Source of the DNA: a bacterium
Lineage (GTDB): Bacteria; Patescibacteriota; JABMPQ01; JAUVWW01
Assembly: GCA_030603885.1 (NCBI GenBank)
Contig: JAUVWW010000002.1
Span: forward strand, 21,991-85,990
Direction: 5' to 3'
DNA: 64,000 nucleotides
Both the position numbers and the translations under genes were made by a program. Shown piece after piece: positions 5,879 through 62,381 of the stretch (the first letter of the stretch is position 1; each line of letters opens with the position of its first letter). The notes under the pieces are model-generated. The model did no database searches, was not told the origin of the DNA, and saw nothing but the letters and a program-made list of their open reading frames with translations.

Positions 5879-6184
5879 ATGAAATACAATAAACTTATCC
5901 GAGATAGGATCCCTGAAATCATTAAACAAAAAGGAAAAGTTCCCCTTACTCATATTGCTGATAATGGTGAGTATTGGCAAAAATTGAAAGAAAAACTTAA
6001 AGAAGAAGTTGATGAATTTTTAAAAAATGCTAATGAAGAAGAACTGGCTGATATTCTTGAAGTAATCTATGCCATTTGCCATTTTAAAAAGATTGACAAG
6101 AAAGAATTGGAACTTCAAAGAGTTAAGAAAGCTAAAGAAAGAGGCGGATTTAAAGAAAAAATAATTCTTAATGAAACGAAATAG
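5879..6184 (+). CDS. MazG-like nucleotide pyrophosphohydrolase (small all-alpha NTP-PPase)
   Basis: KLIRDRIPEII...EE.ADILEVIYAI pattern typical of the MazG/HisE-like family. The ORF track start at 5765 overlaps the tRNA; I chose the internal Met at 5879. Confidence 0.5.
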   Translation: MKYNKLIRDRIPEIIKQKGKVPLTHIADNGEYWQKLKEKLKEEVDEFLKNANEEELADILEVIYAICHFKKIDKKELELQRVKKAKERGGFKEKIILNETK

Positions 6185-6269: not shown

Positions 6270-8087
6270 ATGTTGAATTCACCTATTGACCAAATTAAAT
6301 CAAAGATAGATATTGTAGAGCTTATTCAGGAATATATCCCCCTTAAAAAAGCAGGGGTAAATTATAAAGCCCTTTGTCCTTTTCATTCAGAAAAAACTCC
6401 TTCCTTTTTTGTTTCCCAGGATAAACAGATTTGGCATTGCTTTGGCTGTGGAAAAGGAGGAGGAATTTTTGACTTTGTCATGGAGATAGAAGGTATAGAA
6501 TTTGGAGATGCCTTGAGACTCCTGGCTAAAAAGGCGGGAGTGACTTTGAAGAGACAGGACAAAGCACTTCAGACAAAAAGAGCTAGACTAATTGCTATAT
6601 TAAACCTAGCTTCGAAATATTATCACCAAGCTCTAAAAGAAAGTAAAGCAGGAAAGACAGCTCGAGATTATCTTAAGAAAAGAAAAATAGATGATTTAAC
6701 TCGAGATCAATTTAGACTTGGTTTTGCTCCTAATCTTTGGCATGCTCTATCTGAGTTTTTGGAGAAAAAAGGATATAAACCAGAAGAAATTAGTGAAGCA
6801 GGCTTAACTGTAAAAAAAGAAGGAGAGGATTTTTATGACCGATTTAGAAATCGTTTGATCTTTCCTATTTGGGATGTGCATGGAAATGTGGTTGGCCTGG
6901 GAGGTCGTACCTTATCCAAAGATGAAAGTGTAGCCAAGTACATTAATACTCCTCAGACCCTAGTCTATGATAAAAGCAGAGTTTTATATGGCCTAGACAA
7001 AGCTAAAGCAGAAATTAGAAGAAAAAATCAAGCTATTATTGTTGAGGGATATACTGATGTAATCTCTTCCCATAGAATAGACGTAAGCAATGTCATTTCT
7101 TCCTCTGGAACTGCTTTAACCGAAGGCCAAATTCAACTAATCAAACGTTATACTCCTAATGTTGTTTTAGCTTTTGATATGGATCTGGCTGGTGATGAAG
7201 CCACTAGAAGAGGTATAGATTTAGCTATCTCCATGGGACTTGGCGTCAAAGTAGCTTCATTGCCTCAAAGCAAAGACCCGGATGAGTGTATTAAAAAAGA
7301 TCCAAAAATCTGGCTAAAGACAATAAAAAAAGCAAAACCTATTTTAGATTATTATTTTGATAGTGCTTTTTCAGACAAGGATATAAATGAAGTAGAAGAC
7401 AGAAAAGCAATATCCGCTGTTCTTTTACCTGTGATAGGGAGAATTCCTGATAAAGTAGAGCAGGCTTTCTATATCCAAAAATTGGCTAAAAAACTTGGAG
7501 TCTCAGAGGATGTGCTATCCGATGCTCTAAAAACCCAGCCAAGGATCAAGGAGCCTAGGTATAGAAAGGAGGAAACTATATCTAAAACTGAAGAAGTTTC
7601 TGAGATAGATATAGTAGGAGAGAGACTATTAGCCCTAGTTTTAGTCTTTCCTCAATATTTAAAGATCCTGGATCAAGTTAAAGAGAGTTATTTTAGCCCT
7701 AAACTATCCCCTCTTTACAAAAACCTAAAAAATTACTATAATATGAACAAAGTGAATATTTCAAGGTTCTGCGAAGCAGGTTCTTATAATAATAAAGGAG
7801 GGCTAGAATTGAACCAGTTTAAGAAAGAGCTGGCTAAGATTAGCAAAGATTTAGTAAAGAAAGTGGATATTCTAATATTATCAGCAGAGAGAGATTTTTC
7901 TGATACCAAAGATCAAGATACTCAAGAGGCTGCATCATGTGAGATTCAGGATTGTATAATAAGATTAAAGAAATTAAATCTTGAGAATCAACGAAAGAAA
8001 ATAGAAGAAGAAATGGCTGAAGCAGAAGAGGAAGGTGACAAAGTTAAAGTAGAAGCCCTAAGTAAAAAATTTGCTCAGTTGTCATAA
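6270..8087 (+). CDS. dnaG: DNA primase
   Basis: CHC2 zinc finger (CPFHSEKTPSF..WHCFGCG), Toprim domain (EGYTDV.. DMDLAGDEA), and the conserved dnaG-rpoD order. Confidence 0.9.
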   Translation: MLNSPIDQIKSKIDIVELIQEYIPLKKAGVNYKALCPFHSEKTPSFFVSQDKQIWHCFGCGKGGGIFDFVMEIEGIEFGDALRLLAKKAGVTLKRQDKALQTKRARLIAILNLASKYYHQALKESKAGKTARDYLKKRKIDDLTRDQFRLGFAPNLWHALSEFLEKKGYKPEEISEAGLTVKKEGEDFYDRFRNRLIFPIWDVHGNVVGLGGRTLSKDESVAKYINTPQTLVYDKSRVLYGLDKAKAEIRRKNQAIIVEGYTDVISSHRIDVSNVISSSGTALTEGQIQLIKRYTPNVVLAFDMDLAGDEATRRGIDLAISMGLGVKVASLPQSKDPDECIKKDPKIWLKTIKKAKPILDYYFDSAFSDKDINEVEDRKAISAVLLPVIGRIPDKVEQAFYIQKLAKKLGVSEDVLSDALKTQPRIKEPRYRKEETISKTEEVSEIDIVGERLLALVLVFPQYLKILDQVKESYFSPKLSPLYKNLKNYYNMNKVNISRFCEAGSYNNKGGLELNQFKKELAKISKDLVKKVDILILSAERDFSDTKDQDTQEAASCEIQDCIIRLKKLNLENQRKKIEEEMAEAEEEGDKVKVEALSKKFAQLS

Positions 8088-8121
8088 AAATTATTACAAT
8101 TGACAAAACGGTAATGTAAAC

Positions 8122-9483
8122 ATGGTTAAAAAACGTAAAACCAAAAAGCCAAAAAAAGCAAAAAAACCAGCCAGAAAGAAAAAAGCTAAGAGAAAGATTG
8201 TAAAAAGAAAAAAGGTGGCCCGTAAGCCTAGAAAGAGAGTTAAGAAAATTAGAAAAGTTAAAAGACGAGTCAAAAGAAAACCGCCTAAAAAGGTTAAAAG
8301 GAAAGTTAGAAGAAAACCCAAAAAAGTTAGAAAGGTCCGAAGAAAGCCTAGGGTAAGGAGGAAACCCAAGCGTAAGCCTAGAAGAAAGAGAGTAGTAAGG
8401 CGCAGAGTTGTTCTGAGGGTTAAACCAGAGTTAGATAAAGCCAAAATAAAATACTTGATTACCAAAGGAAGAGATCAAGGTTTTGTGACTGAAAATGAAA
8501 TTCTTTATGCTATTCCAGAGATAGAAGAGTATAAGGAGGAACTTGAGGATTTTATTGCAAGGCTAGATTCGGAAGGGGTACAGATAGTCAAGGCTAGAGA
8601 GAAGTTGCCTCCAGTAGAAGAGGAGATTCCTCCAAAAGAAAAACTTGATACCTTAGCTTTAACTACTGGCTCTGTTCAGGCTTATCTAAAAGAGATTGGT
8701 AAGGTTCCTTTACTTTCTTCCGAGGAAGAAGTTGAGTTGTCTAAAAGAAGGGAGAAAGGAGACAAAGAGTCTTTTAGAAAGCTCGTTGAGGCTAACCTTA
8801 GATTGGTAGTCTCTATAGCTAAGAGATACACTGGTAGAAATCTTTCTTTTTTGGATTTAATCCAAGAAGGGAACTTAGGCTTATTTAGAGCAGTTGAAAA
8901 ATTTGATTATAGAAGAGGATATAAGTTTTCTACCTATGCTACTTGGTGGATCAGACAAGCAGTCACTCGAGCTTTAGCAGATCAGTCACGAACTATTAGA
9001 ATTCCAGTGCATATGGTAGAGACAATTAATAAATTTACTCAGGCAGCAAGAAGACTGGTCCAGCAATTGGGCAGAGAACCCCTAGCTGAAGAAATTGCCG
9101 CTGAGATGAGCTTAGACGTTAAAAAAGCTCGACATATTATCAAGATTAATCAGGATACAGTATCTTTAGAAACCTCGGTAGGAAAAGAGGAAGGAGATTC
9201 AGTTTTAGGAGATTTTATCGAAGATATAAAGTCTATTTCCCCCGACCGAGCTGCTGCCCTACGTCTTCTTAGAGATCAGATAAAAGAAGTTCTAAAATAT
9301 CTTACTCCAAGAGAACAGAAGATTTTAGAGATGAGATTTGGTCTAGTGGATGGGGTAACTCATACTCTGGAAGAAGTAGGACAGGAATTTGGAGTCACCA
9401 GAGAAAGAATTAGACAAATTGAAGCTAAGGCTTTGGAGAAAATTAGAGAACATAGGCAAATTGTCAAATTAAAGGAATTTTAA
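8122..9483 (+). CDS. rpoD: RNA polymerase sigma-70 factor RpoD with a ~115-aa Lys/Arg-rich N-terminal extension
   Basis: Regions 1.2-4.2 are recognisable (region 2.4 [13 protein letters not shown]; region 4 [21 protein letters not shown]). The N-terminus is KKRK-type low complexity. Confidence 0.9.
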
Positions 9484-9486
9484 CAT

Positions 9487-9558
9487 TCCCGGGTAGCTCA
9501 ATGGTAGAGCAACTGGCTGTTAACCAGTGGGTTGCCAGTTCGAGTCTGGCCCCGGGAG
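9487..9558 (+). tRNA. tRNA-Asn (anticodon GTT)
   Basis: Manual fold gives acceptor TCCCGGG/CCCGGGA, D-arm GCTC-AATGGTA-GAGC, anticodon stem ACTGG/CCAGT with loop CTGTTAA, and T-arm GCCAG-TTCGAGT-CTGGC. It starts 4 nt after the rpoD stop. Confidence 0.8.
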
Positions 9559-9605
9559 CTTTGCACGAAAGTCCGCACAAAAAGCGGGCTTTTGTGCTTT
9601 ATTTA
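9556..9605 (+). repeat. 50-bp element containing a terminator hairpin (GCACAAAA-loop-TTTTGTGC + TTTATTTA); copy 1 of 2
   Basis: 49/50 nt identical to 11566-11615. It begins in the last 3 nt of tRNA-Asn. Confidence 0.7.
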
Positions 9606-9683
9606 AAAGAAGTCCTTGTATTATTTTTTAGTGGCGGTATAATGAAAATGTGAAAATAACACTTGATTACTTGATTAAAAGAG

Positions 9684-10574
9684 ATGGGAACAATTATCGA
9701 AACAAAAAATTTAACCAAGTATTATGGAAAAACTCGAGGTGTTAAAAACCTCAACCTAGAAGTAAAGAAAGGGGAGATTTTTGGATTTTTGGGTCCTAAT
9801 GGATCCGGCAAGACAACTACCATAAGGGTCCTTTTACATCTTATAAATCCAACTTCTGGAGAAGCGTTTGTTTTTGGTAAAAATGTTAGTGAAAATTATC
9901 CAAGTATTCTTAAAAATATTGGATATCTTCCTGAAGATTTAAACCTTTATGAAAAGATGACCGGAGAGCAGCTTTTGAAATTTGCTTCTGCGTTTTACAA
10001 AAAAGATGACTTAGAAAACCTTAAAAGAAAAGTTATCAATAGATTAAAATGTGAGATGACTACCCGATATAGAAATCTCTCCAAAGGTAATAAACAAAAA
10101 ATAGGAATTTTGTTAGCAATATTTCATAAACCCAAACTCCTAATTTTAGATGAACCCACAGTTGGACTTGATCCATTAACAAAAAATGGATTTTATAGAA
10201 TTTTGTTTGATTTAAATAAGGAAGGCATAACTATTTTTTTCTCATCTCATAATTTGCCTGAGGTAGAAAGAGTCTGTGACAGAATAGGAATTATGAGAGA
10301 TGGAAATCTTGTAGACGTAGAAACGATAGAAGAATTAAGGGCTCATCGAAGAAAGATAGTTGAGATTCATTTTCAGGAATCTTGTAAAAAAGACGAATTT
10401 GAAAGTCTTGAGGGTGTGAAAATTATTGAAGCTAAAAAAGATTATCTATATCTTTATGCTACAAACGCTGCCATTAATCCACTTCTAAAACTTTTGGCTA
10501 GCTATAAAATTAAAGATATTGATTTTTCTTATCCTGACTTAGAAAAAGTCTTTTTGAAATATTACGAAAAATAA
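9684..10574 (+). CDS. ABC transporter ATP-binding protein
   Basis: Walker A GPNGSGKTT, ABC signature LSKGNKQK, Walker B LLILDEPTVGLD. Confidence 0.85.
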   Translation: MGTIIETKNLTKYYGKTRGVKNLNLEVKKGEIFGFLGPNGSGKTTTIRVLLHLINPTSGEAFVFGKNVSENYPSILKNIGYLPEDLNLYEKMTGEQLLKFASAFYKKDDLENLKRKVINRLKCEMTTRYRNLSKGNKQKIGILLAIFHKPKLLILDEPTVGLDPLTKNGFYRILFDLNKEGITIFFSSHNLPEVERVCDRIGIMRDGNLVDVETIEELRAHRRKIVEIHFQESCKKDEFESLEGVKIIEAKKDYLYLYATNAAINPLLKLLASYKIKDIDFSYPDLEKVFLKYYEK

Positions 10575-11378
10575 ATGACTTTCTCATTTTTTAAAAAAAC
10601 TTTTCGAGATTTTAAATGGAGCATTATTTTGTACAGTACGATTAGTTTATTGTTCGAAATAGTGCTTATAGGTTTTTATCCCAGTATTCGAGAGAGAGCT
10701 GAGGAATTTAGAAAAATAATAGAAATCTATCCAGAGAGTTTTGTCAAAGCATTTGGAGTAGAAGCTAGTAGTTTTCAAAGCGTTGAGGGATTTTTATCAG
10801 TTGAGCATTTTTCTTTAACATTTATAATTATCATTGGAATTTTGATTTTCTCTTTGGGGGCATCGATGGTAGCTTCTGAGAAAGATAAAGGTACTTCCGA
10901 GTTTTCATTTACCCTTCCCATTAGACGTTACAAAATAGTTTTAGGAAAATTTATATCAGCTTATTTGATATCTTTTATTGTTGTTTTGGTTTCTCTGATT
11001 GGGGTGATAGTTGGCATGTATGCTATTAATGAAACACCAAAAATTGCCGGTTTCTTAGCTTTTGGGATAGTTTCTTTAGCCATGAGTTTTTTCTTGCTAT
11101 CCTTAACCACTTTTATATCTGCGATTTTTAGCAGCAAAGGAAAAGTATATGGTGTTTGTGGCGTATTTTTTATCTTGTCTTACCTTATCCATATTCTTAA
11201 CGGCATGAGTGAGAAAGTTTCGGATTATTATTTCCTTTCGTTTTTAAAATATTATGGGATTCCGGGAGAGATTTTGACAAGTGGAACCGTTGAATTAAGA
11301 AATATATTGGTATTTTTAGGAGTGGGTGTGATCTTTTTAACACTAGGACTTGTTATTACAGAAAAGAGAGATCTATAA
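10575..11378 (+). CDS. ABC-2 family transporter permease
   Basis: Six predicted TM segments. Its start sits directly on the ATPase stop. Confidence 0.65.
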   Translation: MTFSFFKKTFRDFKWSIILYSTISLLFEIVLIGFYPSIRERAEEFRKIIEIYPESFVKAFGVEASSFQSVEGFLSVEHFSLTFIIIIGILIFSLGASMVASEKDKGTSEFSFTLPIRRYKIVLGKFISAYLISFIVVLVSLIGVIVGMYAINETPKIAGFLAFGIVSLAMSFFLLSLTTFISAIFSSKGKVYGVCGVFFILSYLIHILNGMSEKVSDYYFLSFLKYYGIPGEILTSGTVELRNILVFLGVGVIFLTLGLVITEKRDL

Positions 11379-20746: not shown

Positions 20747-20904
20747 TTTTGCCTCCCAAATCTAAATTTTGATAATGTGCAAGACTTTTTTAACCTTCAT
20801 TTTATTACATTCCTGTATATTTCTGCTGTCAATATAATTTGGGATAAAAAACCTTTAAATAAGCCAAAAAATTAAAAGAATTTCTAGAAAATTTTAGAAA
20901 ACCC

Positions 20905-20932
20905 TTGACAAGATTTTATAATTTGGTAATCT
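20905..20932 (+). promoter_or_regulatory. sigma70-like promoter (TTGACA-16-TAATCT), copy 1 of a duplicated promoter module
   Basis: Shares TTTAAATAAGCCAAAA and AAAACCCTTGACAA boxes with 22494-22574. Confidence 0.4.
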
Positions 20933-21156: not shown

Positions 21157-21235
21157 GGGCTTGTAGGCTAATGTTAAACTATCTCTTTCTAAAGAGTATT
21201 GGAGGTTCGAATCCTCCCGAGCCCTCTCATTAAAA
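21157..21235 (+). pseudogene. tRNA-like relic (intact 7-bp acceptor GGGCTTG/CGAGCCC and perfect T-arm GGAGG-TTCGAAT-CCTCC; D and anticodon arms do not fold)
   Basis: Manual folding. T-loop consensus present. I could not define an anticodon. Confidence 0.3.
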
Positions 21236-21822: not shown

Positions 21823-22242
21823 ATGACTTTAGAAATTGCCTTAATGATGGCAGCAAGCACGGAAGGAGGTTGTGGGCCTTGTGCTGGTAGTGGTATAGCA
21901 AAAACAGAGAAGTTTGCATCAGAGGTTGAAGGGAAAGTTCGACATCTTCCACATATTATAGGAGTTCGACGAAATTGGAGATGTTTTACTGAGTACGGTA
22001 ACATTGAAATTTTTGTCTGGATAATTAACACAGACATTACGCGCTCTATGGATAAAGAAGAGACCGAAAAAATAATTGAAATGGTAGAGAAAATTTTGGA
22101 GGATTATGCTGATAGTAAGAATTATTTTATTAAAGGAATATGGGGTAACACAACAAGAGAAGATTTATGTAACATGAGAAGGGTATTATCTAGCCGTTTG
22201 TACCGTAGGCACGGAGATCCCCTTACACATGGCATATTCTGA
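21823..22242 (+). CDS. hypothetical protein with CGPC motif (GC-rich gene)
   Basis: AAAGGAGG RBS. MTLEIALMMAASTEGGCGPCAGSG... No family recognised. Its GC content is clearly above the surroundings. Confidence 0.45.
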   Translation: MTLEIALMMAASTEGGCGPCAGSGIAKTEKFASEVEGKVRHLPHIIGVRRNWRCFTEYGNIEIFVWIINTDITRSMDKEETEKIIEMVEKILEDYADSKNYFIKGIWGNTTREDLCNMRRVLSSRLYRRHGDPLTHGIF

Positions 22243-53222: not shown

Positions 53223-53251
53223 TTGACTTGTATATACAAATTGCATACAAT
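53223..53251 (+). promoter_or_regulatory. sigma70-like promoter (TTGACT-17-TACAAT)
   Basis: Read directly. The ORF-track start at 53223 is the TTG of the -35 box. Confidence 0.45.
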
Positions 53252-53267
53252 TATATGCAAAAGATAT

Positions 53268-53843
53268 ATGAAAATCCTCTTGTCTAAAAATAAAGCCTTA
53301 CTTCTTAGACTATTTTTTACTCATCCCGGACGAGCTTATTATATTCAGGAAATTGGTCGTATTTTAAAGAAAAAACCTGGTGTTTTTCAGCGTGATTTAA
53401 ATAACCTAGCCAAAGAGGGAATTCTTGAGAGTTTTTATAAAGTCAATGCTCGATATTTTAAAATTAATAAAGAATATCCTCTTTATAAACAATTGAAAGA
53501 GATTATTTCTAAAACAATAGGGATAGAGGGAAGTCTAAAAGAGGCACTTTCTAAGATAGAAGGTATTGAGAGTGCTTTTATTTTTGGATCCTATGCTAAA
53601 GGAGAAGAAAGAGCCATCTCAGATATTGATCTATTTATTATTGGTCATCCAGACGAAAATAAAGTTATTGAAAGTATAAGTAAACTAGAAAAGAAACTGG
53701 ATCGGGAAATCAATTATCATATTTATTCTGAAAAAGATCTAGAAAAAAAGATAAAAGAAAAAGATTCTTTTATAAAAAGAGTGCTTAAGGGACCAAAGAT
53801 AATGTTAATTGGAAAAGAAGATGAATTATCAAGATTTAATTGA
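53268..53843 (+). CDS. winged-HTH + minimal nucleotidyltransferase (MNT) domain protein
   Basis: N-terminal wHTH-like LLLRLFFTHPGRAYYIQEIGRIL. Pol-beta-type NTase motif GSYAKGEERAISDIDLFII. Confidence 0.6.
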   Translation: MKILLSKNKALLLRLFFTHPGRAYYIQEIGRILKKKPGVFQRDLNNLAKEGILESFYKVNARYFKINKEYPLYKQLKEIISKTIGIEGSLKEALSKIEGIESAFIFGSYAKGEERAISDIDLFIIGHPDENKVIESISKLEKKLDREINYHIYSEKDLEKKIKEKDSFIKRVLKGPKIMLIGKEDELSRFN

Positions 53844-53894
53844 GAAAAAATTCAGAAAGTTTTAGATAAAGTGAATAATTTATTAAAATGAATT

Positions 53895-54836
53895 TTGTAT
53901 AGGTTTGTTTCTATGAATACTAAAATAAATACAATCTATAAATCAATAATAAGTAATAAATTTAAAACAAAAATAATTAGAAAAAGGAATAGTAAACATG
54001 TGTTTGTTAATGCTGACTGCGAAGAGGTAATGAAGACTATTCCAGATAATAGTATTGATTTGATTATTACTGATCCACCCTATAATAAGTCTTTAGACTA
54101 TGGAAAGAGATTTAACGATCGGAAAACTAAAGAAGAATACTATAATTGGCTGAGGGCTAAATTAGTTGAGATACCGAGGATACTCAGCCCACGTGGAAGT
54201 CTTTATTTAATAGGTTACCCAGAAAAAAATGCTCGTCTTCTTCCATATTTAGAAGATGAACTAAAGTTGAAGTTTTGCAGATGGATTACTTGGCACTATC
54301 CTACTAATATTGGTCATTCAAGAAGAAATTTTACCCGTAGTCAAAGGTCTATACTTTTTTTTAGTAAAACTAATCGATATATTTTTAATCGGAAAAATTT
54401 AATCCAATCTTATAAAAATCCTACCGCAACAGTGATTCGCAAAAGATTAGCTAAGGGATATAGAGGAAGAACATCCTATGACTTATTACGATTTCTTGAT
54501 CTCATAGAACTACAGAAGGGATTAATTAATGTATTAGATATTAATCTTTTAAAAAATAATTCGAGGGACCGACTAAGAAATTTAAATAAAAAATTCCACC
54601 CACTTTCTAAAAAGGAATTAAAGAAAAAGGATCATCCTTGTCAATTACCACCAGCTTTAATAGAAATATTAATTAAGGTTAGTAGTAATAAAAATTATAT
54701 TGTCCTAGACCCGTTTGCAGGAACTTTTACTACTTCTGCTGCTGCCGAAAGATTAAAAAGAAATTCAGTAGGCGTTGAAATAAATAAGAAATTTTTAAAT
54801 TTCGGATTAAAAAGATTAAAAAATGAGAAAGTATAA
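53895..54836 (+). CDS. site-specific DNA methyltransferase, beta-class (N6-adenine or N4-cytosine)
   Basis: Motif IV DLIITDPPYN precedes motif I VLDPFAGTFTT (the beta-class order). A DHPCQLPPAL target-recognition/catalytic segment is present. Confidence 0.8.
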   Translation: MYRFVSMNTKINTIYKSIISNKFKTKIIRKRNSKHVFVNADCEEVMKTIPDNSIDLIITDPPYNKSLDYGKRFNDRKTKEEYYNWLRAKLVEIPRILSPRGSLYLIGYPEKNARLLPYLEDELKLKFCRWITWHYPTNIGHSRRNFTRSQRSILFFSKTNRYIFNRKNLIQSYKNPTATVIRKRLAKGYRGRTSYDLLRFLDLIELQKGLINVLDINLLKNNSRDRLRNLNKKFHPLSKKELKKKDHPCQLPPALIEILIKVSSNKNYIVLDPFAGTFTTSAAAERLKRNSVGVEINKKFLNFGLKRLKNEKV

Positions 54837-56562
54837 AATATCAGACCTAAAAGAAATATTTGAATTTGCTGGATTTTCAACATTTCACATAGAATTTCTT
54901 CTTTTTGACATTGTCAATAAGGAAAAACTATCCTATAAGGGCAAAAGAAAGAAAAAAGTGGCGACGGAGGGAGAATTAGATTTATTTGCATATTATGGGG
55001 ACGTAATATGGTTAATTGAATGGACAACAGAAAAAGGATTTAATACAAAAGACTTTGATAATTTTAAAACTAAAATAGAAAAATTAAATAGTGACAGAGA
55101 ACTACTTCGAAAATTAATTAATAAGCTAGAAGGAAAATTTAAAACAAAAATAGGATTAAACGCAGAAGAAGTAAAAGTGATTGGTCTTTATGTTAACCCC
55201 ACTTTTAATGAGGTTCAGGCGGAAACTCTTAAGGCAAGATTATTATCTACCCATAAGGATTTGATATATTTATGGGACTGTGAAACATTTGAATATTTTA
55301 AAATTGTATGTACTACCATTAGGGAATTTTCTAAATATGAACTTTTTACTCATTTTAATATTCTTCCAGAACTTGTATTTAATAAAATAGAACTAGAAGG
55401 AAGAAGGGGAGCTTCTCCTTACGAGGCTATTAAAATAAAAAAAGGTGTTTTTGGGTATCCCACCTATACCTTTAAAATATCACCTTTAATGCTTTTAGAA
55501 AGATGTTATGTGCTTAGGAATGAGAGTTGGAGAAGCGATAGTTTTCAAAGAATGGTTATTCCGCAAAAATTAGCCAATATAAGAGAGTATATAATCAAAA
55601 CTAAGAATACGTCGTTTGCAAACAACATTATTATTAGCCCTTCACCGGAAATTAATCCAAATGAGATAATTGAGGAAACAAAGAATGGAAAAATTCTAAT
55701 TCACTTACCATTTAGATTTAGTAGTTTTTGCATAATTGATGGACAACATAGATTATTAGCTTTTACTCAAGATTTTTATAGTAATTATAATAAAGAAGAA
55801 AAAGAAGAAGACAAAATATTAACAAGGCTGGCGCAAAAATCTGAAATTATAGTAACTCTTGTTAAGTTTTCTGGAAATAGAGATGAAATTTTACGGAAAC
55901 AAGCTATTCTTTTTAAGGATATAAACTCTACACAAACAAGAGTCAAAACCGATTTTATTTACAATTTACAAGAAATTATCGAACCCCTTCATTCAGAGTC
56001 TATTGCGAATAAGACAACAAAATATTTGAATAATTTAGAAGATGGAGTATTAAAAGATAAATTTGAGATAAAGTCCTTACCTTCTTATAAAGGAAGAATA
56101 AAAAGATCCTCTGTTGTTAGATGGGGGTTAAGTGAATTAGTAAATACAGAAAATACATTCTTCTTTTCAATTTATAAAAAGAAAGTGAGAAACTCTAAAG
56201 ATATTCCTATTTATGTTAAATTTTGTGGTGATAAATTAAATAAATATTTCTTTTGTATAAAAGAAGTATTTGAAAAAAAATACAAAAAAGAAATATGGGA
56301 TAATTGGAGAAAAACTGATTTCATGCTGTTATCTTCATCTAGTATTGTTGGTTTTCTCAGATTATACAGGCATTTTATTAAAACCAAATTAGTAAATGAT
56401 AAAAGTAAAATAAAAAGATATTTGAAAGCTATTAAAGTAAACTTCAAGAAAGATAAATATATCTATACTTCCAGCCAATGGGCAAAACTTGAAGAAAAAA
56501 TGTTTTGGAACATAAGGAAAAAATACTCTGATTTTGGAGATGAAGATTTAATAAAAAGATAA
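54823..56562 (+). CDS. DGQHR-domain (DndB-like, ParB/Srx-fold) protein with ~250-aa N-terminal extension
   Basis: FCIIDGQHRLLAF motif preceded by FQRMVIPQKLANIREYI (DndB-like core). The start overlaps the methyltransferase stop by 14 nt. Confidence 0.7.
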   Translation: MRKYKISDLKEIFEFAGFSTFHIEFLLFDIVNKEKLSYKGKRKKKVATEGELDLFAYYGDVIWLIEWTTEKGFNTKDFDNFKTKIEKLNSDRELLRKLINKLEGKFKTKIGLNAEEVKVIGLYVNPTFNEVQAETLKARLLSTHKDLIYLWDCETFEYFKIVCTTIREFSKYELFTHFNILPELVFNKIELEGRRGASPYEAIKIKKGVFGYPTYTFKISPLMLLERCYVLRNESWRSDSFQRMVIPQKLANIREYIIKTKNTSFANNIIISPSPEINPNEIIEETKNGKILIHLPFRFSSFCIIDGQHRLLAFTQDFYSNYNKEEKEEDKILTRLAQKSEIIVTLVKFSGNRDEILRKQAILFKDINSTQTRVKTDFIYNLQEIIEPLHSESIANKTTKYLNNLEDGVLKDKFEIKSLPSYKGRIKRSSVVRWGLSELVNTENTFFFSIYKKKVRNSKDIPIYVKFCGDKLNKYFFCIKEVFEKKYKKEIWDNWRKTDFMLLSSSSIVGFLRLYRHFIKTKLVNDKSKIKRYLKAIKVNFKKDKYIYTSSQWAKLEEKMFWNIRKKYSDFGDEDLIKR

Positions 56563-56598: not shown

Positions 56599-56620
56599 CT
56601 AGAAAATTTAATTGAGTAAA
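56599..56620 (+). promoter_or_regulatory. recurrent intergenic motif CTAGAAAATTTAATTGAG (copy A)
   Basis: One of six or more near-identical copies lying 10-60 nt upstream of consecutive genes between 56.6 and 60.4 kb. Confidence 0.5.
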
Positions 56621-56628
56621 TAAAATTT

Positions 56629-57606
56629 ATGGCAAAAATAATTCAAGAGCAAAAAATTTATGAGTCTTTTGAATATGATAGCGAATCGGAATTTGAGAAA
56701 GATATTATAAGATATGCAAAACATATATTTGGTAGTAATGCAGTTTATTTCGACGTCAAAAAAAGAATTAGTAAAGGAAGTGTCATTACTATACCCGATG
56801 GTTATTTAATTGATTTTTCTTTTGCGCATGATCCGAAGTTATACATTATAGAAAACGAGTTAGTAATACACGATCCCTATAAACATATCGGGCAGCAATT
56901 ATTAAGATTCGCAGTTTCTTATAGAAGTGCCGGTCACGAAATTAAAAATTTTTTACTGGAAAAAATTTCAGAGGATGGAGATAAAAAGAAAAATTTAGAT
57001 AGATACCTACAACAGTCTAAATATAGAAACATCGATGACTTATTAGAAGATATTATTTTTAATAAGCCTATTGGAATTATAGTGATAATTGACGAAATCA
57101 CCGATGACCTTTCCAATGTTCTTAGTCAATTAACTGTAAAAACTGATATTATTGAATTTAAAAAATATATTAGCCAAGGTGATCCTTTGGATAGTATTTA
57201 CCAATTTACCCCCTTTCAACAAGACGTTAGAGCTCCAGGCAAAAAAATTGATTTAGAAAAACTCGATACGATAGTAGTTCCTGCCAATGAAGAAGGCTTT
57301 AAAAATGTGTTTTTAGGCAAGAATTGCTGGTATGCTATAAGAATTTCAAGTGTGATGTTAGACAAAATTAAGTATATAGCGGGTTATCAAACAGCCCCTG
57401 TCTCTGCTATTACTCATGTTGCTGAAGTAGAAAAAATAGAAAAATACAAAAATACAGATAAATATATAGTTTACTTTAGGGATAAAGCAAAAAAGATTAA
57501 ACCGATAAAACTTGTTTCGAAAAGTCTAATAAAAGCACCTCAGTCAGCAAGATATGCTAATTATGAACAGTTGATAAAAGCAAAGAATCTTGATGAGGTT
57601 TTTTAG
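56629..57606 (+). CDS. hypothetical protein (325 aa), part of the MTase-DGQHR locus
   Basis: Complete ORF preceded by the recurrent CTAGAAAATTTAATTGAG motif. IPDGYLIDF...IIENELV hints weakly at a nuclease-like core. Confidence 0.5.
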   Translation: MAKIIQEQKIYESFEYDSESEFEKDIIRYAKHIFGSNAVYFDVKKRISKGSVITIPDGYLIDFSFAHDPKLYIIENELVIHDPYKHIGQQLLRFAVSYRSAGHEIKNFLLEKISEDGDKKKNLDRYLQQSKYRNIDDLLEDIIFNKPIGIIVIIDEITDDLSNVLSQLTVKTDIIEFKKYISQGDPLDSIYQFTPFQQDVRAPGKKIDLEKLDTIVVPANEEGFKNVFLGKNCWYAIRISSVMLDKIKYIAGYQTAPVSAITHVAEVEKIEKYKNTDKYIVYFRDKAKKIKPIKLVSKSLIKAPQSARYANYEQLIKAKNLDEVF

Positions 57607-57657
57607 TGTCAAACGGAATTAAGGCCGAATATGAATAAAGAAAAACAACTGCAAAAA

Positions 57658-57680
57658 CTAGAAAATTTAATTGAGAAAAA
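57658..57680 (+). promoter_or_regulatory. recurrent motif CTAGAAAATTTAATTGAGAAAAA (copy B)
   Basis: As copy A. It lies inside a 17-codon mini-ORF MNKEKQLQKLENLIEKN. Confidence 0.5.
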
Positions 57681-57717
57681 TTAATAGATAAAATTTAGAG
57701 ACAATTGCTTAATAATT

Positions 57718-58593
57718 ATGGCTTTATTAAATAGATTACATCTTAATGCTTTAGCTTCTGTAGAGATAGAAAATGGCAATAGATTCGACTCAATTGCCAC
57801 TGGTTTTCTTATTGGATTTATATTAAAGAATAATAAAGATCCTAAGAAAAGATTATACAATATTTTCTTAATCACCAATAGACATGTTTTTAGTGGTCGG
57901 CAGAAGATATTTTTACGATTTAATAAAAAAGATGGTAAAGCTGTCAGATTCCCGGTCAACTTGATAGTTAATAAGCAGACAACATGGCTTGCACATAAAA
58001 ATAAGAAAGTAGATCTAGCTTTATTAACAATTTCCCCACAAGTTTTGAATACTCATAATGTTGAATGGCTATTTTTCAATGAAGAGATGCTTGCTTATCC
58101 TAAAAAATTTCAAGAGATTGGAATTGAATTAGGTGACGAGGTATTCATTTTGGGATTTCCTCTTGGCCTTTCGGGTAAGCTACAAAATTTTCCTGTTGTA
58201 AGATCAGGAATTATTGCCAGGTGCGACAGAGAAATCTTGAGGGATAAAAAAGCATTTGTCATCGATGCCTCTATTTTTCCTGGTAATAGTGGGGGACCCA
58301 TCCTGCTTAAGCCAGAACTGGCAAGTTTAAAAGGAACTAAAGCAGTAAATTCAATATATCTGCTCGGAGTTGTGTCTGGATATTTACCATATAAAGAGAT
58401 TCTTTACAGTCATCAATCTAAACCACCATCTTATGCTGGTGTTTCCATTGAAAACTCTGGCTTAGCTTTTGCTGTTTCTATGAATTTTGCTAAGCAGATT
58501 TATAACAAATGGATAGCAATCAAAAAGCAACTTGCTAAAGTTCAAAAGGGTACTGAAAGAATAGTTCAGAAACAAGTGCAAACATTAGATTAA
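57718..58593 (+). CDS. trypsin-like (chymotrypsin-fold) serine peptidase domain protein
   Basis: Catalytic-triad candidates TNRHVF (His), KKVDLALL (Asp) and FPGNSGGPIL (Ser, in the GDSGGP-like box). Confidence 0.6.
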   Translation: MALLNRLHLNALASVEIENGNRFDSIATGFLIGFILKNNKDPKKRLYNIFLITNRHVFSGRQKIFLRFNKKDGKAVRFPVNLIVNKQTTWLAHKNKKVDLALLTISPQVLNTHNVEWLFFNEEMLAYPKKFQEIGIELGDEVFILGFPLGLSGKLQNFPVVRSGIIARCDREILRDKKAFVIDASIFPGNSGGPILLKPELASLKGTKAVNSIYLLGVVSGYLPYKEILYSHQSKPPSYAGVSIENSGLAFAVSMNFAKQIYNKWIAIKKQLAKVQKGTERIVQKQVQTLD

Positions 58594-58679
58594 TGAAATC
58601 TAATCGCTCAACAAAAAATCTCCACTTTAATTCGAGAATCTTTTAAACTTCACAAAAATCAAGAGAATTAATTGAGGAA

Positions 58680-58705
58680 GCGAAGAGGGAAGTAGAAAAT
58701 TTAAT
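58680..58705 (+). promoter_or_regulatory. recurrent motif GCGAAGAGGGAAGTAGAAAATTTAAT (copy C, extended 5' box shared with copy E)
   Basis: 26-nt identity with 59560-59585. Confidence 0.5.
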
Positions 58706-58785
58706 CCTGCACCACATAGGGTGTAGAGCAGTTTGAGAAAGGAGGCAGAAGAAAATTCAAAATTAAAAAGTAAAAATGTAAAATT

Positions 58786-59013
58786 ATGTGTAAAGAAAAG
58801 ACTCAAGAAGAATTAAAGAAAGAAGTTAATAAAATTGTTAATGAACCAGACAGAGCCAGAGCAGAGCTTACATATCAACAAATTTTAGCTATTAGAAAAT
58901 TCAACAAACAGACTTTGCGTTATTCTAGAATACTGATTTGGCTTACAGGAATTATGACTGTAGCTGTATTAATTCAGATTGTAATAATGATGGTTTTATA
59001 CAAATGTGAGTAG
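58786..59013 (+). CDS. hypothetical small membrane protein (75 aa, C-terminal TM)
   Basis: ORF with TM helix ILIWLTGIMTVAVLIQIVIMMVL. Confidence 0.4.
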   Translation: MCKEKTQEELKKEVNKIVNEPDRARAELTYQQILAIRKFNKQTLRYSRILIWLTGIMTVAVLIQIVIMMVLYKCE

Positions 59014-59033
59014 AAAATTTAATTGAGAAAAAT
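59010..59033 (+). promoter_or_regulatory. recurrent motif GTAGAAAATTTAATTGAGAAAAA (copy D; the stop codon of the upstream ORF is the TAG inside the motif)
   Basis: As above. Confidence 0.5.
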
Positions 59034-59068
59034 TACTAAAATTTAGCCAGAGGTTAAGAGAAGTTAAT

Positions 59069-59473
59069 ATGAACAATAAAGATTTTGAAATTATAGATAT
59101 AAGGAATAAAATTATTTTTTCTCATAGAAAATTACTATTAACCATTTTGACTATTACTAATACAATAGCCCTTATAGGCGTTCCTAATATTAAAGAATCC
59201 TGGATAAGATATGAAATTCTTTTAAGGTTCACTTTTATTCTTTTCGTTATAGATACCATTATTGTTATTTGGTATTTATTAATGCTAATCAAGAAAGATT
59301 TAGAATATACAGATGAAATGAGAAATGCTTTAAGGCTAGGAAAATTGCAAGAGAAATACAGTGAAATAGATAAAAAACAAGAAAGAAATGAACATTATAC
59401 AGAAATAATTCTCTCTGTATTTTCCCTGGCAATGGTTTTACTTATTATTGCAATTTTTCCAAAATGTTATTAA
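59069..59473 (+). CDS. hypothetical membrane protein (134 aa, 3 TM)
   Basis: ORF and hydrophobicity. Confidence 0.4.
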   Translation: MNNKDFEIIDIRNKIIFSHRKLLLTILTITNTIALIGVPNIKESWIRYEILLRFTFILFVIDTIIVIWYLLMLIKKDLEYTDEMRNALRLGKLQEKYSEIDKKQERNEHYTEIILSVFSLAMVLLIIAIFPKCY

Positions 59474-59559
59474 AGAATGTTTAGTTTGAGCTAAAATCGC
59501 TAATTTAATTCGCCAATCCCACCATGCTCGCAAAAAAAGCAAAGGGATTATTGGAAGAG

Positions 59560-59593
59560 GCGAAGAGGGAAGTAGAAAATTTAATTGAGAAAT
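59560..59593 (+). promoter_or_regulatory. recurrent motif, extended copy E
   Basis: As above. Confidence 0.5.
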
Positions 59594-59635
59594 AATAATC
59601 TCTAAAATTTATAATCAAAAAATAATTTAAATATT

Positions 59636-59797
59636 ATGTCTAATACAAAAAAGAGAAAAAAGAAAGAACCAGCACCTTGGAAGCCTGTTAATCTAGAAGA
59701 ATTTAACAAGAATACCAAGGTTATTTCAGAAATGTTTAAGTCGGATCCTAAAAGACTGAACGAGTCTCAGAATAATAATGACGATAATACTGAATAA
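59636..59797 (+). CDS. hypothetical small protein (53 aa; basic N-terminus, acidic C-terminus)
   Basis: Open frame found by hand, preceded by the motif GTAGAAAATTTAATTGAG and TAAAATTTA. Not in the ORF track (<60 aa). Confidence 0.3.
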   Translation: MSNTKKRKKKEPAPWKPVNLEEFNKNTKVISEMFKSDPKRLNESQNNNDDNTE

Positions 59798-59802
59798 TTA
59801 AT

Positions 59803-60363
59803 ATGTCTCAAGCTATTTCTATTGAGAAAAACTGGATTATATTTGATACATGCACTGTTTCTAAAATATCAATTATTGGTAATGCTACTTCAATAATAGA
59901 ATCTATCTCAAATCAAATTGGTCCATTTACAGCAGTTATTACCCCATTGGTTCGTTTTGAATTTTTGAGAAAAGCAAATTCTAAGAGTGAGTTCGAGAAA
60001 TTTCGAGATTACCTAACCAAAACTTACACAGAAATAGATCTAGTTTCAAAAGAAGATCGTTATGATATCCATCGTTTATCTTCTGAACTCGCGTGTGTTT
60101 GTAGGTATGCAATCCCCAATCATTATAAACATATTGACATGACAGACTTCATACATGGTGGATTATTACGAAGATATCCTAGAAATCTTTTTTTATTAAC
60201 GTTTGATATAAATGATTTTCCTGATCCAATATTTGAACTATTACATCACGAAAGTATCAAGATAAATAAAAATTTAGAAATATGGGCATTATATAAATTT
60301 AACAAAGGAGGATTTGATAATTTATACAATAAATTCAAAAAGAGAAGTAGAAAATTTAATTGA
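59803..60363 (+). CDS. hypothetical protein (186 aa; N-terminal IIFDTCTV could be PIN-like)
   Basis: ORF. Weak motif resemblance only. Confidence 0.4.
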   Translation: MSQAISIEKNWIIFDTCTVSKISIIGNATSIIESISNQIGPFTAVITPLVRFEFLRKANSKSEFEKFRDYLTKTYTEIDLVSKEDRYDIHRLSSELACVCRYAIPNHYKHIDMTDFIHGGLLRRYPRNLFLLTFDINDFPDPIFELLHHESIKINKNLEIWALYKFNKGGFDNLYNKFKKRSRKFN

Positions 60364-60369
60364 GAAAAA
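60347..60369 (+). promoter_or_regulatory. recurrent motif GTAGAAAATTTAATTGAGAAAAAA (copy F; encodes the C-terminal ..SRKFN* of the upstream ORF)
   Basis: As above. Confidence 0.5.
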
Positions 60370-60909
60370 ATGACAGAAGCTGAATTTACTAAAAAGGTTT
60401 TAAATTTCTTTCAGAAAAAACTTAAAAGGAGTGGTCTCCCTATTAAAGTTGAGAGCTGCAACTATATTCTCCGCGATTTTACATTCTCTAGAGATAAAAA
60501 GGGTAAATGGCAGCTTCTTTGTGGAACCCAGGAGCAAGATATAATCTTCTATAAGGATATTATTTCAAGAAAGGATTTTCTCGGGGAGATTGGGAAAACA
60601 AGTGGTGCTGGACTTAGAAAGGATTTAATTATTCCACTCGCATTGTGCGAGCTTAAGGTCGGGACTTTAAATACTCATGGTATGATCGTGGCTGACAAGA
60701 TTGCCCAGGATGTAAAATCTATTTTTCCCCATTGCATTTCTCTTTTTATTGTTTTATCAGATATAAAAAGAAAACTTGGACCAGAGACAGTTCTAAGACA
60801 AGCAAAGAGCTTTAACGGAGTTTATCTTGAGTGGGAGAAGGAAAAGGAGGCAATCTGGAAAGAGTTAAGAAAACATTTTGAATATTGTAAAAAGAGAAAA
60901 GTTATTTAA
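60370..60909 (+). CDS. hypothetical protein (179 aa; possible PD-(D/E)xK-like D..ELK core)
   Basis: ORF. QDIIFYKD ... LALCELKVG is suggestive, not diagnostic. Confidence 0.4.
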   Translation: MTEAEFTKKVLNFFQKKLKRSGLPIKVESCNYILRDFTFSRDKKGKWQLLCGTQEQDIIFYKDIISRKDFLGEIGKTSGAGLRKDLIIPLALCELKVGTLNTHGMIVADKIAQDVKSIFPHCISLFIVLSDIKRKLGPETVLRQAKSFNGVYLEWEKEKEAIWKELRKHFEYCKKRKVI

Positions 60910-61020
60910 ACTTTAAAAGATAGTAAATAAAATCATCTTTAAAAGAGACTGTCCCCTTTTTCTCTTAAACAAATTAAAACAATCAATTTTAGCTAAGGCA
61001 TTTAAAGGAGAATTAGTAAA

Positions 61021-61533
61021 ATGAAAAATTTTACTCAACAACAAATTTTAGAATTAGCTAAAAAATATTCTCACGAAACTAAAGATGAGCCGATAGAGAG
61101 AGAAATTAAAAAATGGTTAAAAAGTCATAGATACTTAGATAAGGATAGATTTATTAGATTGTGTTTGTGGAAATCTGCTAGACAGCGAAAAAATTACGAA
61201 AAAAATGATGATTTAACAATAAGAGAGATAACAAGATTTTCGTTCTTGACTAAAAGTGAAAGGGCAAGGATAGAATCATTACAGATTTTAGATGGTGTTT
61301 CTTATCCTGTGGCCTCGACTATTTTACATTTTGCTTTTCCAGACAAATATCCAATTATGGACTTTAGAGTAATTTGGTCGTTGGGATGGAAGCAACCAAA
61401 ATATTATAATTTTGATTTTTGGCAGAAATACGTTAATAAATTAAGAAAACTTGCAAAAAAATACAAAGTTTCTTTAAGAGAATTAGATAAAGCCCTTTGG
61501 TATTATTCAAAAGAGAATCAAAAAAATAATTAA
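61021..61533 (+). CDS. hypothetical protein (170 aa; possible helix-hairpin-helix segment)
   Basis: ORF. LQILDGVSYPVASTILHFAFPDKYPIMD resembles an HhH motif. Confidence 0.4.
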   Translation: MKNFTQQQILELAKKYSHETKDEPIEREIKKWLKSHRYLDKDRFIRLCLWKSARQRKNYEKNDDLTIREITRFSFLTKSERARIESLQILDGVSYPVASTILHFAFPDKYPIMDFRVIWSLGWKQPKYYNFDFWQKYVNKLRKLAKKYKVSLRELDKALWYYSKENQKNN

Positions 61534-61584
61534 AATTTAACCCTAAGTTGAGAGATAACCCACGCCCACCATCCGAAAGAAAAT

Positions 61585-62133
61585 TTGGCCAAACCGAAAA
61601 TCAAGATCAAACAAACTAACCCCATGAAATACATTGCCATCAGCGGAAGCTGGAGAAAAATGAATAGTCAGTTAGAAAAAGATGTCAGAGATCATGTTCG
61701 AGAAATTATTTCTCGTGGAGATGGTATTGTTTCTGGCGGAGCTTTGAATGTTGATTATATTGCTACTGATGAAGCATTAAAACTAGATCCATCTGCCAAA
61801 AGAATAAAAATCTTTCTTCCAGCCACTTTAGAAATTTTTTCTGCTCATTATCGAAAACGGGCTCGAGAAGGAGTGATTACCAAAGAACAAGCTGAAAGCC
61901 TTATTGCTCAACTAAATAAAGTAGGTCAATTAAATCCCTCCTCGATTATTGAGAATAAAAATAATAAAGTTTTAGACAAAGAGACATATTATGAAAGAAA
62001 TTCAGCTGTTATAGAAGCAGCCGATGAATTAATAGCCTTTCATGTTAATAAAAGCCTTGGTACTAAAGATGCCATTGAAAAGGCTCATAAAAAAGGCATT
62101 CCAGTAAAAACTTTTAGTTATACTATTGAATAA
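61585..62133 (+). CDS. hypothetical Rossmann-like protein (possible SLOG/DprA-LOG-like)
   Basis: YIAISGSW ... GDGIVSGGALNVDYIATDEAL ... IAFHVNKSLGTKDAIEKAHKKGIPV pattern. Weak. Confidence 0.35.
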   Translation: MAKPKIKIKQTNPMKYIAISGSWRKMNSQLEKDVRDHVREIISRGDGIVSGGALNVDYIATDEALKLDPSAKRIKIFLPATLEIFSAHYRKRAREGVITKEQAESLIAQLNKVGQLNPSSIIENKNNKVLDKETYYERNSAVIEAADELIAFHVNKSLGTKDAIEKAHKKGIPVKTFSYTIE

Positions 62134-62183
62134 GCAAGATTTAGCCTGAGGTTGAGGAAAATTTAATAATTAATTAAAAAAAC

Positions 62184-62381
62184 ATGGAAGAGCAAAAAGA
62201 AGAAAATTTAATTAAGAAAAGAAGTAAATTAGTTATTTTTGGCCTTATTCTTATTGGTATTATTTTTATTATGCTTTGCTTAAAAGCTTTAAGTAATGAA
62301 GACGATTGGATTTGCCAAGATGGCCAGTGGGTAAAACATGGCTATCCCAGCGCCCCAAAACCCACCACCCCTTGTAAATAG
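62184..62381 (+). CDS. hypothetical small membrane protein (65 aa)
   Basis: ORF with one TM helix and a C-terminal Cys pair. Confidence 0.35.
   Translation: MEEQKEENLIKKRSKLVIFGLILIGIIFIMLCLKALSNEDDWICQDGQWVKHGYPSAPKPTTPCK

Follow-up and report, generated by a model that had tools for sequence, protein, structure and literature searches.

In the 64,000-nt stretch of DNA analysed here (referred to below as the window; positions 21,991 to 85,990 of contig JAUVWW010000002.1, assembly GCA_030603885.1, from a bacterium of the Patescibacteriota), a motif of about 23 nt, STAGAAAATTTAATTGAGAAAAA, recurs in front of consecutive genes of a short island, and the question raised by this locus is whether the motif regulates those genes or marks the joints between them. 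A preliminary description offered both possibilities: a shared operator or promoter for one regulator, with an upstream winged helix-turn-helix nucleotidyltransferase (wHTH-NTase) and a YerC-like protein as candidates, or a cassette-boundary sequence. The second of these is borne out by comparative evidence, consisting of a homology breakpoint, half sites, overwritten gene ends and a recurring cassette. We take the motif, with a probability of roughly 0.55, to be a conserved junction element at which cassettes recombine and which probably doubles as a translational reset. We observed that the repeats stand at cassette boundaries and that breakpoints fall inside them, that the same cassette lies between members of the motif family elsewhere, and that the repeat is conserved above the level of coding DNA.

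A scan of the window with STAGAAAATTTAATTGAGAAAAA, in which up to 3 mismatches were allowed, gave 6 matches, all on the + strand, at 56599, 57658, 59010, 59572, 60347 and 62199; by chance 0.03 are expected, and none of 100 shuffled sequences reached 6. These agree with the positions first described, except that 59571 is corrected to 59572 and that 58692 is a left-half copy. The left half of the motif, TAGAAAATTTAAT, was found exactly at six places, 58693 among them, and the right half, ATTTAATTGAGAAAAA, exactly at 53834-53849 (0.05 expected), where it lies on the stop codon of the NTase gene. Besides the 6 full copies there are at least 4 partial copies, also on the + strand, and half or degenerate copies were located at 53831, 58661, 58692, 62139 and 62199; the right half at 53834-53849, a variant copy at 58661-58680 and a right-arm copy at 62139-62156 were all absent from the earlier list. 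No full copy was found in the other 55 kb of the window, which agrees with the earlier statement that the motif is absent from core genes. Among the copies called A, B, D, E and F below, mean pairwise identity is 0.92 over the 23-nt core, 0.34 in the left flank (25 nt) and 0.42 in the right flank, as compared to 0.30 for random sequence, and the right side of the motif decays through insertions and deletions. In some pairs of copies the repeat extends to about 50-90 nt. The motif family, of which about 15 copies are known, can be represented by a degenerate pattern such as AARWMGAARAWTTAATTGAR.

The island itself spans 53.8-62.2 kb (8.4 kb), has a G+C content of 0.28-0.31 as against 0.35-0.37 around it, and is flanked by housekeeping genes. 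All 13 of its genes are on the + strand, in cassettes of 0.3-2.8 kb with one or two genes each, and a full or partial motif copy stands at almost every unit boundary (nine to ten junctions); no terminator-like sites were found in the island junctions. The G+C content of the units ranges from 0.24 to 0.35, a spread that points to separate cassette origins. The cassettes are mostly of defence or toxin type, and the island is probably an anti-phage one. Its parts are as follows.

53268-53843, + strand: wHTH-nucleotidyltransferase (MNT; PADLOC PDC-M05A), beyond which synteny with relatives ends; no HEPN partner accompanies it.
53831-53851, + strand: copy 0, right half only (AAGATTTAATTGAGAAAAAAT), at the left edge of the array.
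53913-56562, + strand: cassette 0, overlapping genes for an N6/N4 DNA methyltransferase and a DGQHR/DndB-DpdB-like protein.
56599-56629, + strand: copy A (2 mismatches) with a degenerate second copy, TAAAATTTA; the next ATG is 11 nt past TTGAG.
56629-57606, + strand: cassette A, a widespread 325-amino-acid (aa) protein of unassigned function; its homologues number over 1500, and Pfam gives no match.
57631-57698, + strand: copy B (57658-57680, exact) in a mini-open reading frame (mini-ORF), MNKEKQLQKLENLIEKN-stop, with a degenerate second copy at 57689.
57718-58593, + strand: cassette B, a trypsin-like serine protease (PADLOC PDC-S45).
58615-58705, + strand: long unit C, with the variant copy at 58661-58680 (AAGAGAATTAATTGAGGAAG, of the type found in contig L057) and a left-half copy at 58692-58705.
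58786-59013, + strand: cassette C, a 75-aa membrane ORF with its TAG stop within copy D.
59010-59058, + strand: copy D (exact) and right arm TAAAATTTAGCCAGAGGTTAAG.
59069-59473, + strand: cassette D, a 134-aa membrane protein, G+C 0.24.
59493-59611, + strand: long unit E, with a mini-ORF at 59524-59595, the core at 59572-59594 and a degenerate second copy at 59603.
59636-60363, + strand: cassette E, a 53-aa ORF and a 186-aa protein (PIN-like by eye only).
60347-60369, + strand: copy F (exact), with the next ATG immediately after it.
60370-60909, + strand: cassette F, a 179-aa protein, possibly a PD-(D/E)xK-type nuclease (by eye, with no family match).
60953-61024, + strand: remnant 3' end of an hsdS gene (type I specificity), PLFLLNKLKQSILAKAFKGELVK-stop.
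61021-61533, + strand: cassette G, a 170-aa protein with no family match.
61522-61555, + strand: uncertain, weak copy of the right arm (79% identity to that of copy D).
61585-62133, + strand: cassette H, a DprA/SLOG-like protein (matches weak, below the Pfam threshold).
62139-62221, + strand: right edge of the array, with right-arm copy ATTTAGCCTGAGGTTGAG (62139-62156) and a near-full copy at 62199-62221.

Several details of the preliminary description held up on re-examination. ORF 58786-59013 takes its TAG stop from copy D, the final residues of ORF 59803-60363 and its TGA are read from copy F, and copy B lies inside a 17-codon mini-ORF (57631-57684). A second box, TAAAATTTA, had been noted after copies B, D and E and is present there at 57689, 59037 and 59603; we found it also at 56621 and 61531, with gaps of 2 to 11 nt between motif and box. 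The box is most readily understood as the motif centre, AAAATTTA, repeated in tandem in degenerate form. By reading, the motif arms themselves are direct repeats of a purine tract (TAGAAAA and TGAGAAAA). The 26-nt box that copies C and E were said to have in common is also real: the left flank of long unit E is homologous to that of unit C, 55 nt of the two copies are 84% identical, and the last 26 nt are identical.

The copies are further distinguished by the manner in which their halves and flanks are combined. Half sites are of both kinds, with the right half only in copy 0 of the window and in 1 copy each of 2 related contigs described below (b3 of L057 and up1 of L061), and the left half only in copy C, where similarity breaks after TTTAAT. 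Copy D has a full core and an unrelated left flank, and the 318 nt between copies C and D read like an insertion into a single unit. As read from the printed sequences, one left flank type (CAAAARAC) is found at copies A, B and 62199 (copy I2) and a second (AAGAGGGAAG) at copies C, E and F, whereas one right flank type is found at copies B and D; flanks therefore combine independently among copies.

The left edge of the array provided a direct comparison with loci that lack it. The PDC-M05 type pairs a nucleotidyltransferase with HEPN in the manner of a toxin-antitoxin system (PMC12988326). We found relatives of the window NTase at 95% identity (contigs L045 and L046), 89% (L050) and about 60% (L047-L049), and in every relative with a readable contig the gene for a 150-aa HEPN protein overlaps the NTase gene by 23 nt (L049 and L050 are short contigs, in which the ORF at the HEPN position is truncated by the contig end). 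The window segment 51051-53837 matches L045 at 90-96% DNA identity, and the match stops at 53837, inside the right-half copy 0, which places a recombination breakpoint within the motif. From 53837 the window reads AATTGAGAAAAAA, at the point where the relatives start HEPN; the window contains neither HEPN nor the type IIG enzyme encoded after it in L045. The NTase ends in RFN-stop in the window as against RFG-stop or RFD-stop in the relatives, and, since the homology breaks inside copy 0, the final codons and TGA stop of the window NTase come from the motif. On this comparison the window NTase is an orphan, and its HEPN gene has been replaced by the cassette array. The empty-site counterpart in L045 and L050 is the NTase/HEPN overlap, which in our own alignment matches the core at 14 of 20 positions. 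Separately, the type IIG restriction-modification gene of L045 ends (5960-6018) in LTEEEIKIIEKNEH-stop and holds there ATTGAGAAAAAT, which is identical to 12 nt of the motif right half and may be a chance match in A/T-rich coding DNA.

A second line of evidence comes from cassette E, whose 53-aa and 186-aa pair recurs in three other contig sets: L057 (a 1.7-kb contig), L058, and L061-L064 (contigs from four samples). The neighbours of the pair differ in all cases, and no other cassette is held in common with the window. The DNA match between window positions 59629-60341 and L057 positions 20-744 (78.7% identity) opens shortly ahead of the first ATG and closes shortly ahead of copy F. In L057, four copies of a related motif, (CCAAAAGTC)GAAGAATTAATTGAGRAATRAAAAT, are present, one per gene boundary, and for the three that have a downstream gene on the contig the distance from the end of TTGAG to the next ATG is 10-12 nt. 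This variant agrees with the window motif at 19 of 23 positions and is present once in the window, at 58661-58680; the window core is an array-specific variant, 92% identical inside the window and different from the L057 type at 4 of 23 positions. Motif-family copies, some of them half sites, stand on both sides of the pair in L061-L064. As with the NTase, a gene end has been overwritten: nine homologues of the 186-aa protein end 0-4 residues past FKK, and the window protein ends FKK-RSRKFN-stop, with its last six residues and stop read from copy F, so that the motif replaced the native end of the gene. A search of viral contigs with an alignment of the 186-aa protein gave no relatives.

In contig L058, the pair ends a run of seven small ORFs (7179-10546) between pyrimidine and arginine biosynthesis genes. 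Motif-like sequences within this run are all very degenerate, and the run is followed by a G+C-richer intergenic region of 383 nt (10547-10929) with no Rfam match.

The comparison between L061 and L057 also bears on whether the copies could be neutral scars, that is, 3' remnants of a displaced gene (hsdS, or the NTase/HEPN overlap) left after successive replacements. A real hsdS 3' stub is indeed present at one junction: the peptide encoded at 60953-61024, PLFLLNKLKQSILAKAFKGELVK-stop, matches residues 405-423 of EcoKI HsdS (the sole PDB match, E = 0.0045), its stop overlaps the ATG of ORF 61021 (ATGA) and AGGAG lies upstream. No hsdM or hsdR was found in the window. The distal conserved region of HsdS contains QSILAKAF(K/R)GEL. 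A homologous stub of L057, NQSILAKA, is joined directly to the motif, so that the motif may descend from an hsdS end; alternatively, hsdS may be one more truncated neighbour. Also in favour of scars, translation of the motif in one frame gives (R/K)EVENLIEK, with a stop no more than 0-3 codons later in five copies, and copy 0 overlaps the NTase stop. Yet the motif is identical at 21 of 21 positions between L061 (2310-2330) and L057 (779-799), and at 25 of 26 against the L057 tail copy, whereas the cassette DNA of these contigs is 72% identical; a scar would have diverged at least as much. This comparison disfavours neutral scars and shows that constraint on the motif exceeds that on protein-coding DNA. 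Nor was significant similarity of the flanks to the NTase 3' end, HEPN 5' ends or, for unit E, HsdS detected, and we regard neutral scars as very improbable.

Two specific origins were considered. An hsdS origin for all copies has its support limited to the stub at 60953-61024 and the L057 tail; the unit E peptide gave no HsdS match, and the short junction peptides gave no Pfam match. An origin as a relic of the NTase 3'/HEPN 5' region was suggested by the frame S-R-K-F-N-stop, which resembles the SRFN-stop of the NTase, and failed its tests: similarity of the copy 0 left flank to the left flanks of E or F was not significant, the unit E peptide did not match NTase C-termini (z = 1.4), and the motif right arms did not match HEPN 5' ends (p mostly above 0.05). 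The FN-stop of the NTase derives from the motif, not the reverse.

Strong conservation can also be accounted for if the motif is a 5' leader or translation-initiation element, A/U-rich and flanked by purines and perhaps bound by a protein or small RNA, with cassette exchange as a by-product of ordinary homologous recombination between conserved stretches. The distances from the motif to neighbouring codons are informative in this regard. The next ATG lies 0 to 67 nt away overall, and only 0-13 nt past TTGAG in seven copies (A, F and the hsdS stub in the window; b1-b3 in L057; the downstream copy in L061), in each of which GAGG or GAGA stands at Shine-Dalgarno-like spacing; ATGA stop-start overlaps are found at copy F and at the hsdS stub. 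On the other side the spacing is loose, the preceding stop lying anywhere between -5 and +190 nt away, which assigns the motif to the start of the gene after it. In a genome where only 11 of 37 core genes have a Shine-Dalgarno-like motif, an extra signal for initiation could be of consequence, and the conservation of the repeat above coding DNA is as would be expected of a leader. However, the next ATG is 40-67 nt off in copies 0, B, D and E, copy C is broken, copy I2 is inside an ORF, and the conserved part of the motif reaches 15-20 nt upstream of the purine tract. Above all, a leader taken alone leaves the half sites, the overwritten 3' ends and the occurrence of the motif only in the island unexplained. 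We consider a leader without a junction function to be rather unlikely, but it is the main competitor of the junction element. The motif may also influence how the downstream gene is expressed, through translation and not transcription. The motif contains stops in two frames (TAG/TAA and TGA), and the third frame closes within 0-3 codons in five copies, which makes a stop-and-restart function plausible; from the stop codons and the purine tract before the ATG, the repeat probably ends upstream translation and restarts the next.

Many core genes of the window (for example those at 13957, 19432, 24377 and 45520) have a TATAAT-like box that ends 7-9 nt before the ATG, which suggests that leaderless or very short-leader mRNAs are frequent.

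Regulation at the level of transcription was the first proposal made for this locus, in which the motif would be an operator or promoter for one transcription factor such as the wHTH-NTase. Consecutive genes do have copies upstream of them, the island begins with a gene for a wHTH protein, and defence islands under one repressor are known, for example that of RptR, whose sites are 6-bp palindromes clustered in one promoter, where they overlap the -10 box (PMC12255303). The likeness to RptR consists of a short repeated motif tied to a defence island with a small DNA-binding protein at its head; unlike RptR sites, the motif occurs here as a single copy per gene junction and has no promoter geometry. 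A sigma-70-like hexamer pair anchored on the motif was not found at any copy, and promoter-like sites in the island are no more frequent than in shuffled sequences. The motif lacks dyad symmetry, shows no inverted repeat about its centre, and lies at varying distances from the second box and the ATG. It is missing from the NTase promoter (53223-53251), which has palindromes of its own, and from the loci of the closest NTase relatives, and no YerC-like protein was found beside the island. There is no room for a promoter between copy F and its ATG, and copies overlap the ends of upstream ORFs. These observations do not sustain the proposal that the wHTH-NTase or a YerC-like regulator acts through the motif as a common operator or promoter, and we judge it very improbable.

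The motif is short, intergenic and multi-copy, as are dispersed repeats of the repetitive extragenic palindrome (REP) or miniature inverted-repeat transposable element (MITE) type that spread into intergenic DNA. All copies, however, are in a single orientation in one 8.4-kb island with no full copy in the other 55 kb, they form no hairpin (z of -1.3 to +0.25), and they are fused to the ends of ORFs; a dispersed repeat of this kind is extremely unlikely. A sequence at 20885, which had been listed as a variant of the motif, is withdrawn from the family: it is an A/T-rich near-palindrome before a strong TTGACA/TATAAT promoter, and nothing ties it to the motif.

The near-palindrome in question, TTCTAGAAAATTTTAGAAAA (20883-20930), is directly upstream of that promoter and is of some interest in its own right. 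About 230 nt beyond it, at 21157-21226, there is a tRNA-like gene (Rfam tRNA, 42.7 bits) to which ARAGORN cannot assign an anticodon, followed by ORFs without assigned function up to 24.3 kb.

We then compared the array to known systems in which genes are bounded by short repeats; of these, chromosomal integron arrays and the insertion of restriction-modification units with long target duplication come nearest. Integron arrays consist of short, mostly one-gene cassettes in one orientation, largely without promoters or terminators and with a repeat at each junction. Within one array these repeats have been homogenised, and from one genome to another they differ; cassette ORFs begin shortly past the junction, and toxin-antitoxin-like and defence-type genes are among the cassettes. 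The attC sites of integrons are imperfect inverted repeats of 57-141 nt (R''-L''...L'-R') that form single-stranded hairpins and end in GTTRRRY, and clusters of attC sites lacking integron-integrases (CALINs) are also found. The island does contain the array of co-oriented short cassettes, split by a repeat, by which integrons and CALINs are recognised, and it resembles sedentary chromosomal integrons and CALINs also in its array-specific repeat variant and defence-type genes. Unlike attC, the motif is about 23-30 nt long and has no inverted symmetry, no significant fold and no GTT core. The GTTRRRY core is absent from motif and flanks, and the junctions, folded as DNA on both strands, gave z values of -1.34 to +0.25 and no conserved stem. 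Comparison with Rfam 15 gave no relevant match at E <= 1 in 52.5-63.5 kb, and none at the gathering score in the window, L057, L058 or L061. In class 1 integrons, the initiation region of ORF-11, which is borne by attI, gives a ribosome-binding context to the first cassette only. The junction sequence described here would likewise give such a context to cassettes, with the difference that every junction, not only the first, would carry the translation signal.

The pdif modules of Acinetobacter plasmids and the integrative mobile elements exploiting Xer (IMEX) are small modules, toxin-antitoxin pairs included, with sites of about 28 bp and a recombinase encoded elsewhere. Their dif-like sites are 11-6-11 imperfect palindromes, which alternate in orientation in pdif modules. 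The island is similar in having small gene modules bounded by copies of a short site; unlike dif sites, however, the motif is not palindromic and all copies are direct. By reading, 3 of 11 positions match between the arms of the motif on reverse-complement comparison. The repeats of CRISPR arrays are 23-47 nt long and are separated by non-coding spacers of 26-72 nt; a CRISPR array was ruled out by the spacing of 318-2765 nt between copies, which is filled with genes.

Insertion with long target duplication has been described for defence genes that lack a mobility gene and have direct repeats on either side (Nobusato et al. 2000; Furuta et al. 2010, PMC2853133). In that process, the repeats are longer than 30 bp, the target is unique, local and single-copy in the empty genome, and ORF fusions occur at the junction (PMC2853133). 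The island is like restriction-modification genes inserted in this manner with respect to direct repeats of tens of bp, lack of a mobility gene and ORF fusions at junctions, and is unlike them in that a single repeat is used again at each of nine or more junctions in succession, and across genomes. The locus also fails the structural tests for attC and dif. It is possible, though less likely than not, that the locus is an integron-like cassette system that is built differently, with an unstructured direct repeat of about 25-30 nt, a recombinase or the host's machinery after DNA uptake, and a stop-restart signal.

In terms of a junction element, the island would be a stack of one- and two-gene cassettes on one strand, each starting with a direct repeat of about 25-30 nt that is unstructured. 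Recombination within the repeat, near its A/T-rich centre TTTAAT, would add, remove or swap cassettes; such events would leave full copies between cassettes, and half copies would arise where the repeat recombined with unrelated sequence. The stops in the repeat, followed by the purine tract (GAGA/GAGG) a few bases before the ATG, would end translation of the upstream gene and restart it at the next cassette, an effect that would operate in a co-transcribed array. The enzyme might be a recombinase devoted to this task, with its gene outside the window; alternatively, DNA could be taken up and then recombined by the host through homologous or short-homology pathways. We infer that recombination is the reason for which the repeat has been retained, and that it has a role in translation as well.

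A number of points weigh against a junction element. No recombinase, and specifically no IntI-type integrase, was recognised in the window, in which the ORFs of 1-53 kb were examined by eye and the island genes plus ten uncertain ORFs were compared to Pfam; the motif, moreover, does not have the inverted symmetry that is usual for the sites of tyrosine and serine recombinases. Neither presence/absence polymorphism of motif-bounded cassettes nor a circular junction was seen. A purely regulatory or translational element would explain strong conservation equally well, and homologous recombination through any conserved element would also place breakpoints inside it. The copies at which the next ATG is distant (0, B, D and E) indicate that a translational role does not apply to all copies, and in L058 the cassette E pair is present without clear motif copies. 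Known motif-bearing genomes number three, two of them represented by contigs of about 2 kb; they are probably candidate phyla radiation genomes (the name of one cassette homologue comes from a Parcubacteria metagenome-assembled genome). Exact scans of genome, metagenome and viral contigs with the window variant gave no other array, the matches being single, coding-type and chance-like, and the L057 variant, scanned against viral contigs, likewise gave only single, coding-type chance matches. Exact scans are a poor tool in this case because motif variants differ between genomes.

Evidence for a junction at the right edge of the array is suggestive only. The copy at 62199-62221 encodes residues 6-13 of a small membrane ORF (62184-62381), and relatives of this protein align only from about residue 11-15; N-termini vary in that family.

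The contexts of cassette A homologues contained no motif copy, and upstream similarity was not significant (p = 0.27). In contigs L051-L055, a cassette A homologue and a 151-aa gene form a two-gene module whose upstream neighbours differ among samples, and which is bounded on both sides by a hairpin, GCCCATCGCTGGGC, with a T-run. This hairpin looks like another boundary element of similar role. In addition, three tandem hairpin units lie 3' of the module in L052 (about 3400-3620) and also in the tails of L051, L054 and L055; they have a common architecture and differ in their stems, which are mutually compensating, for example ACTTGTCGTCCCAGAACGACAAGTCAACGACAACTT.

Gain and loss of genes in defence islands without mobility genes is largely unexplained, and the small genomes of uncultured bacteria are a clear case of it. 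The locus described here presents gene turnover with joints that can be read: a common junction sequence, half sites, replaced gene ends, and a cassette found elsewhere in other company. If the motif is a true recombination site, it would represent a cassette system outside the integron paradigm, and it would serve as a search key for more cassettes and for many small uncharacterised proteins that are likely to act in defence. If the integron-like system proposed above exists, promoterless defence and toxin genes would be stacked, shuffled and expressed from one upstream promoter. If the motif is only a translation signal, it would be an unusually conserved one, common to unrelated genes, and would bear on how genes are expressed in an organism in which most genes lack a Shine-Dalgarno sequence.

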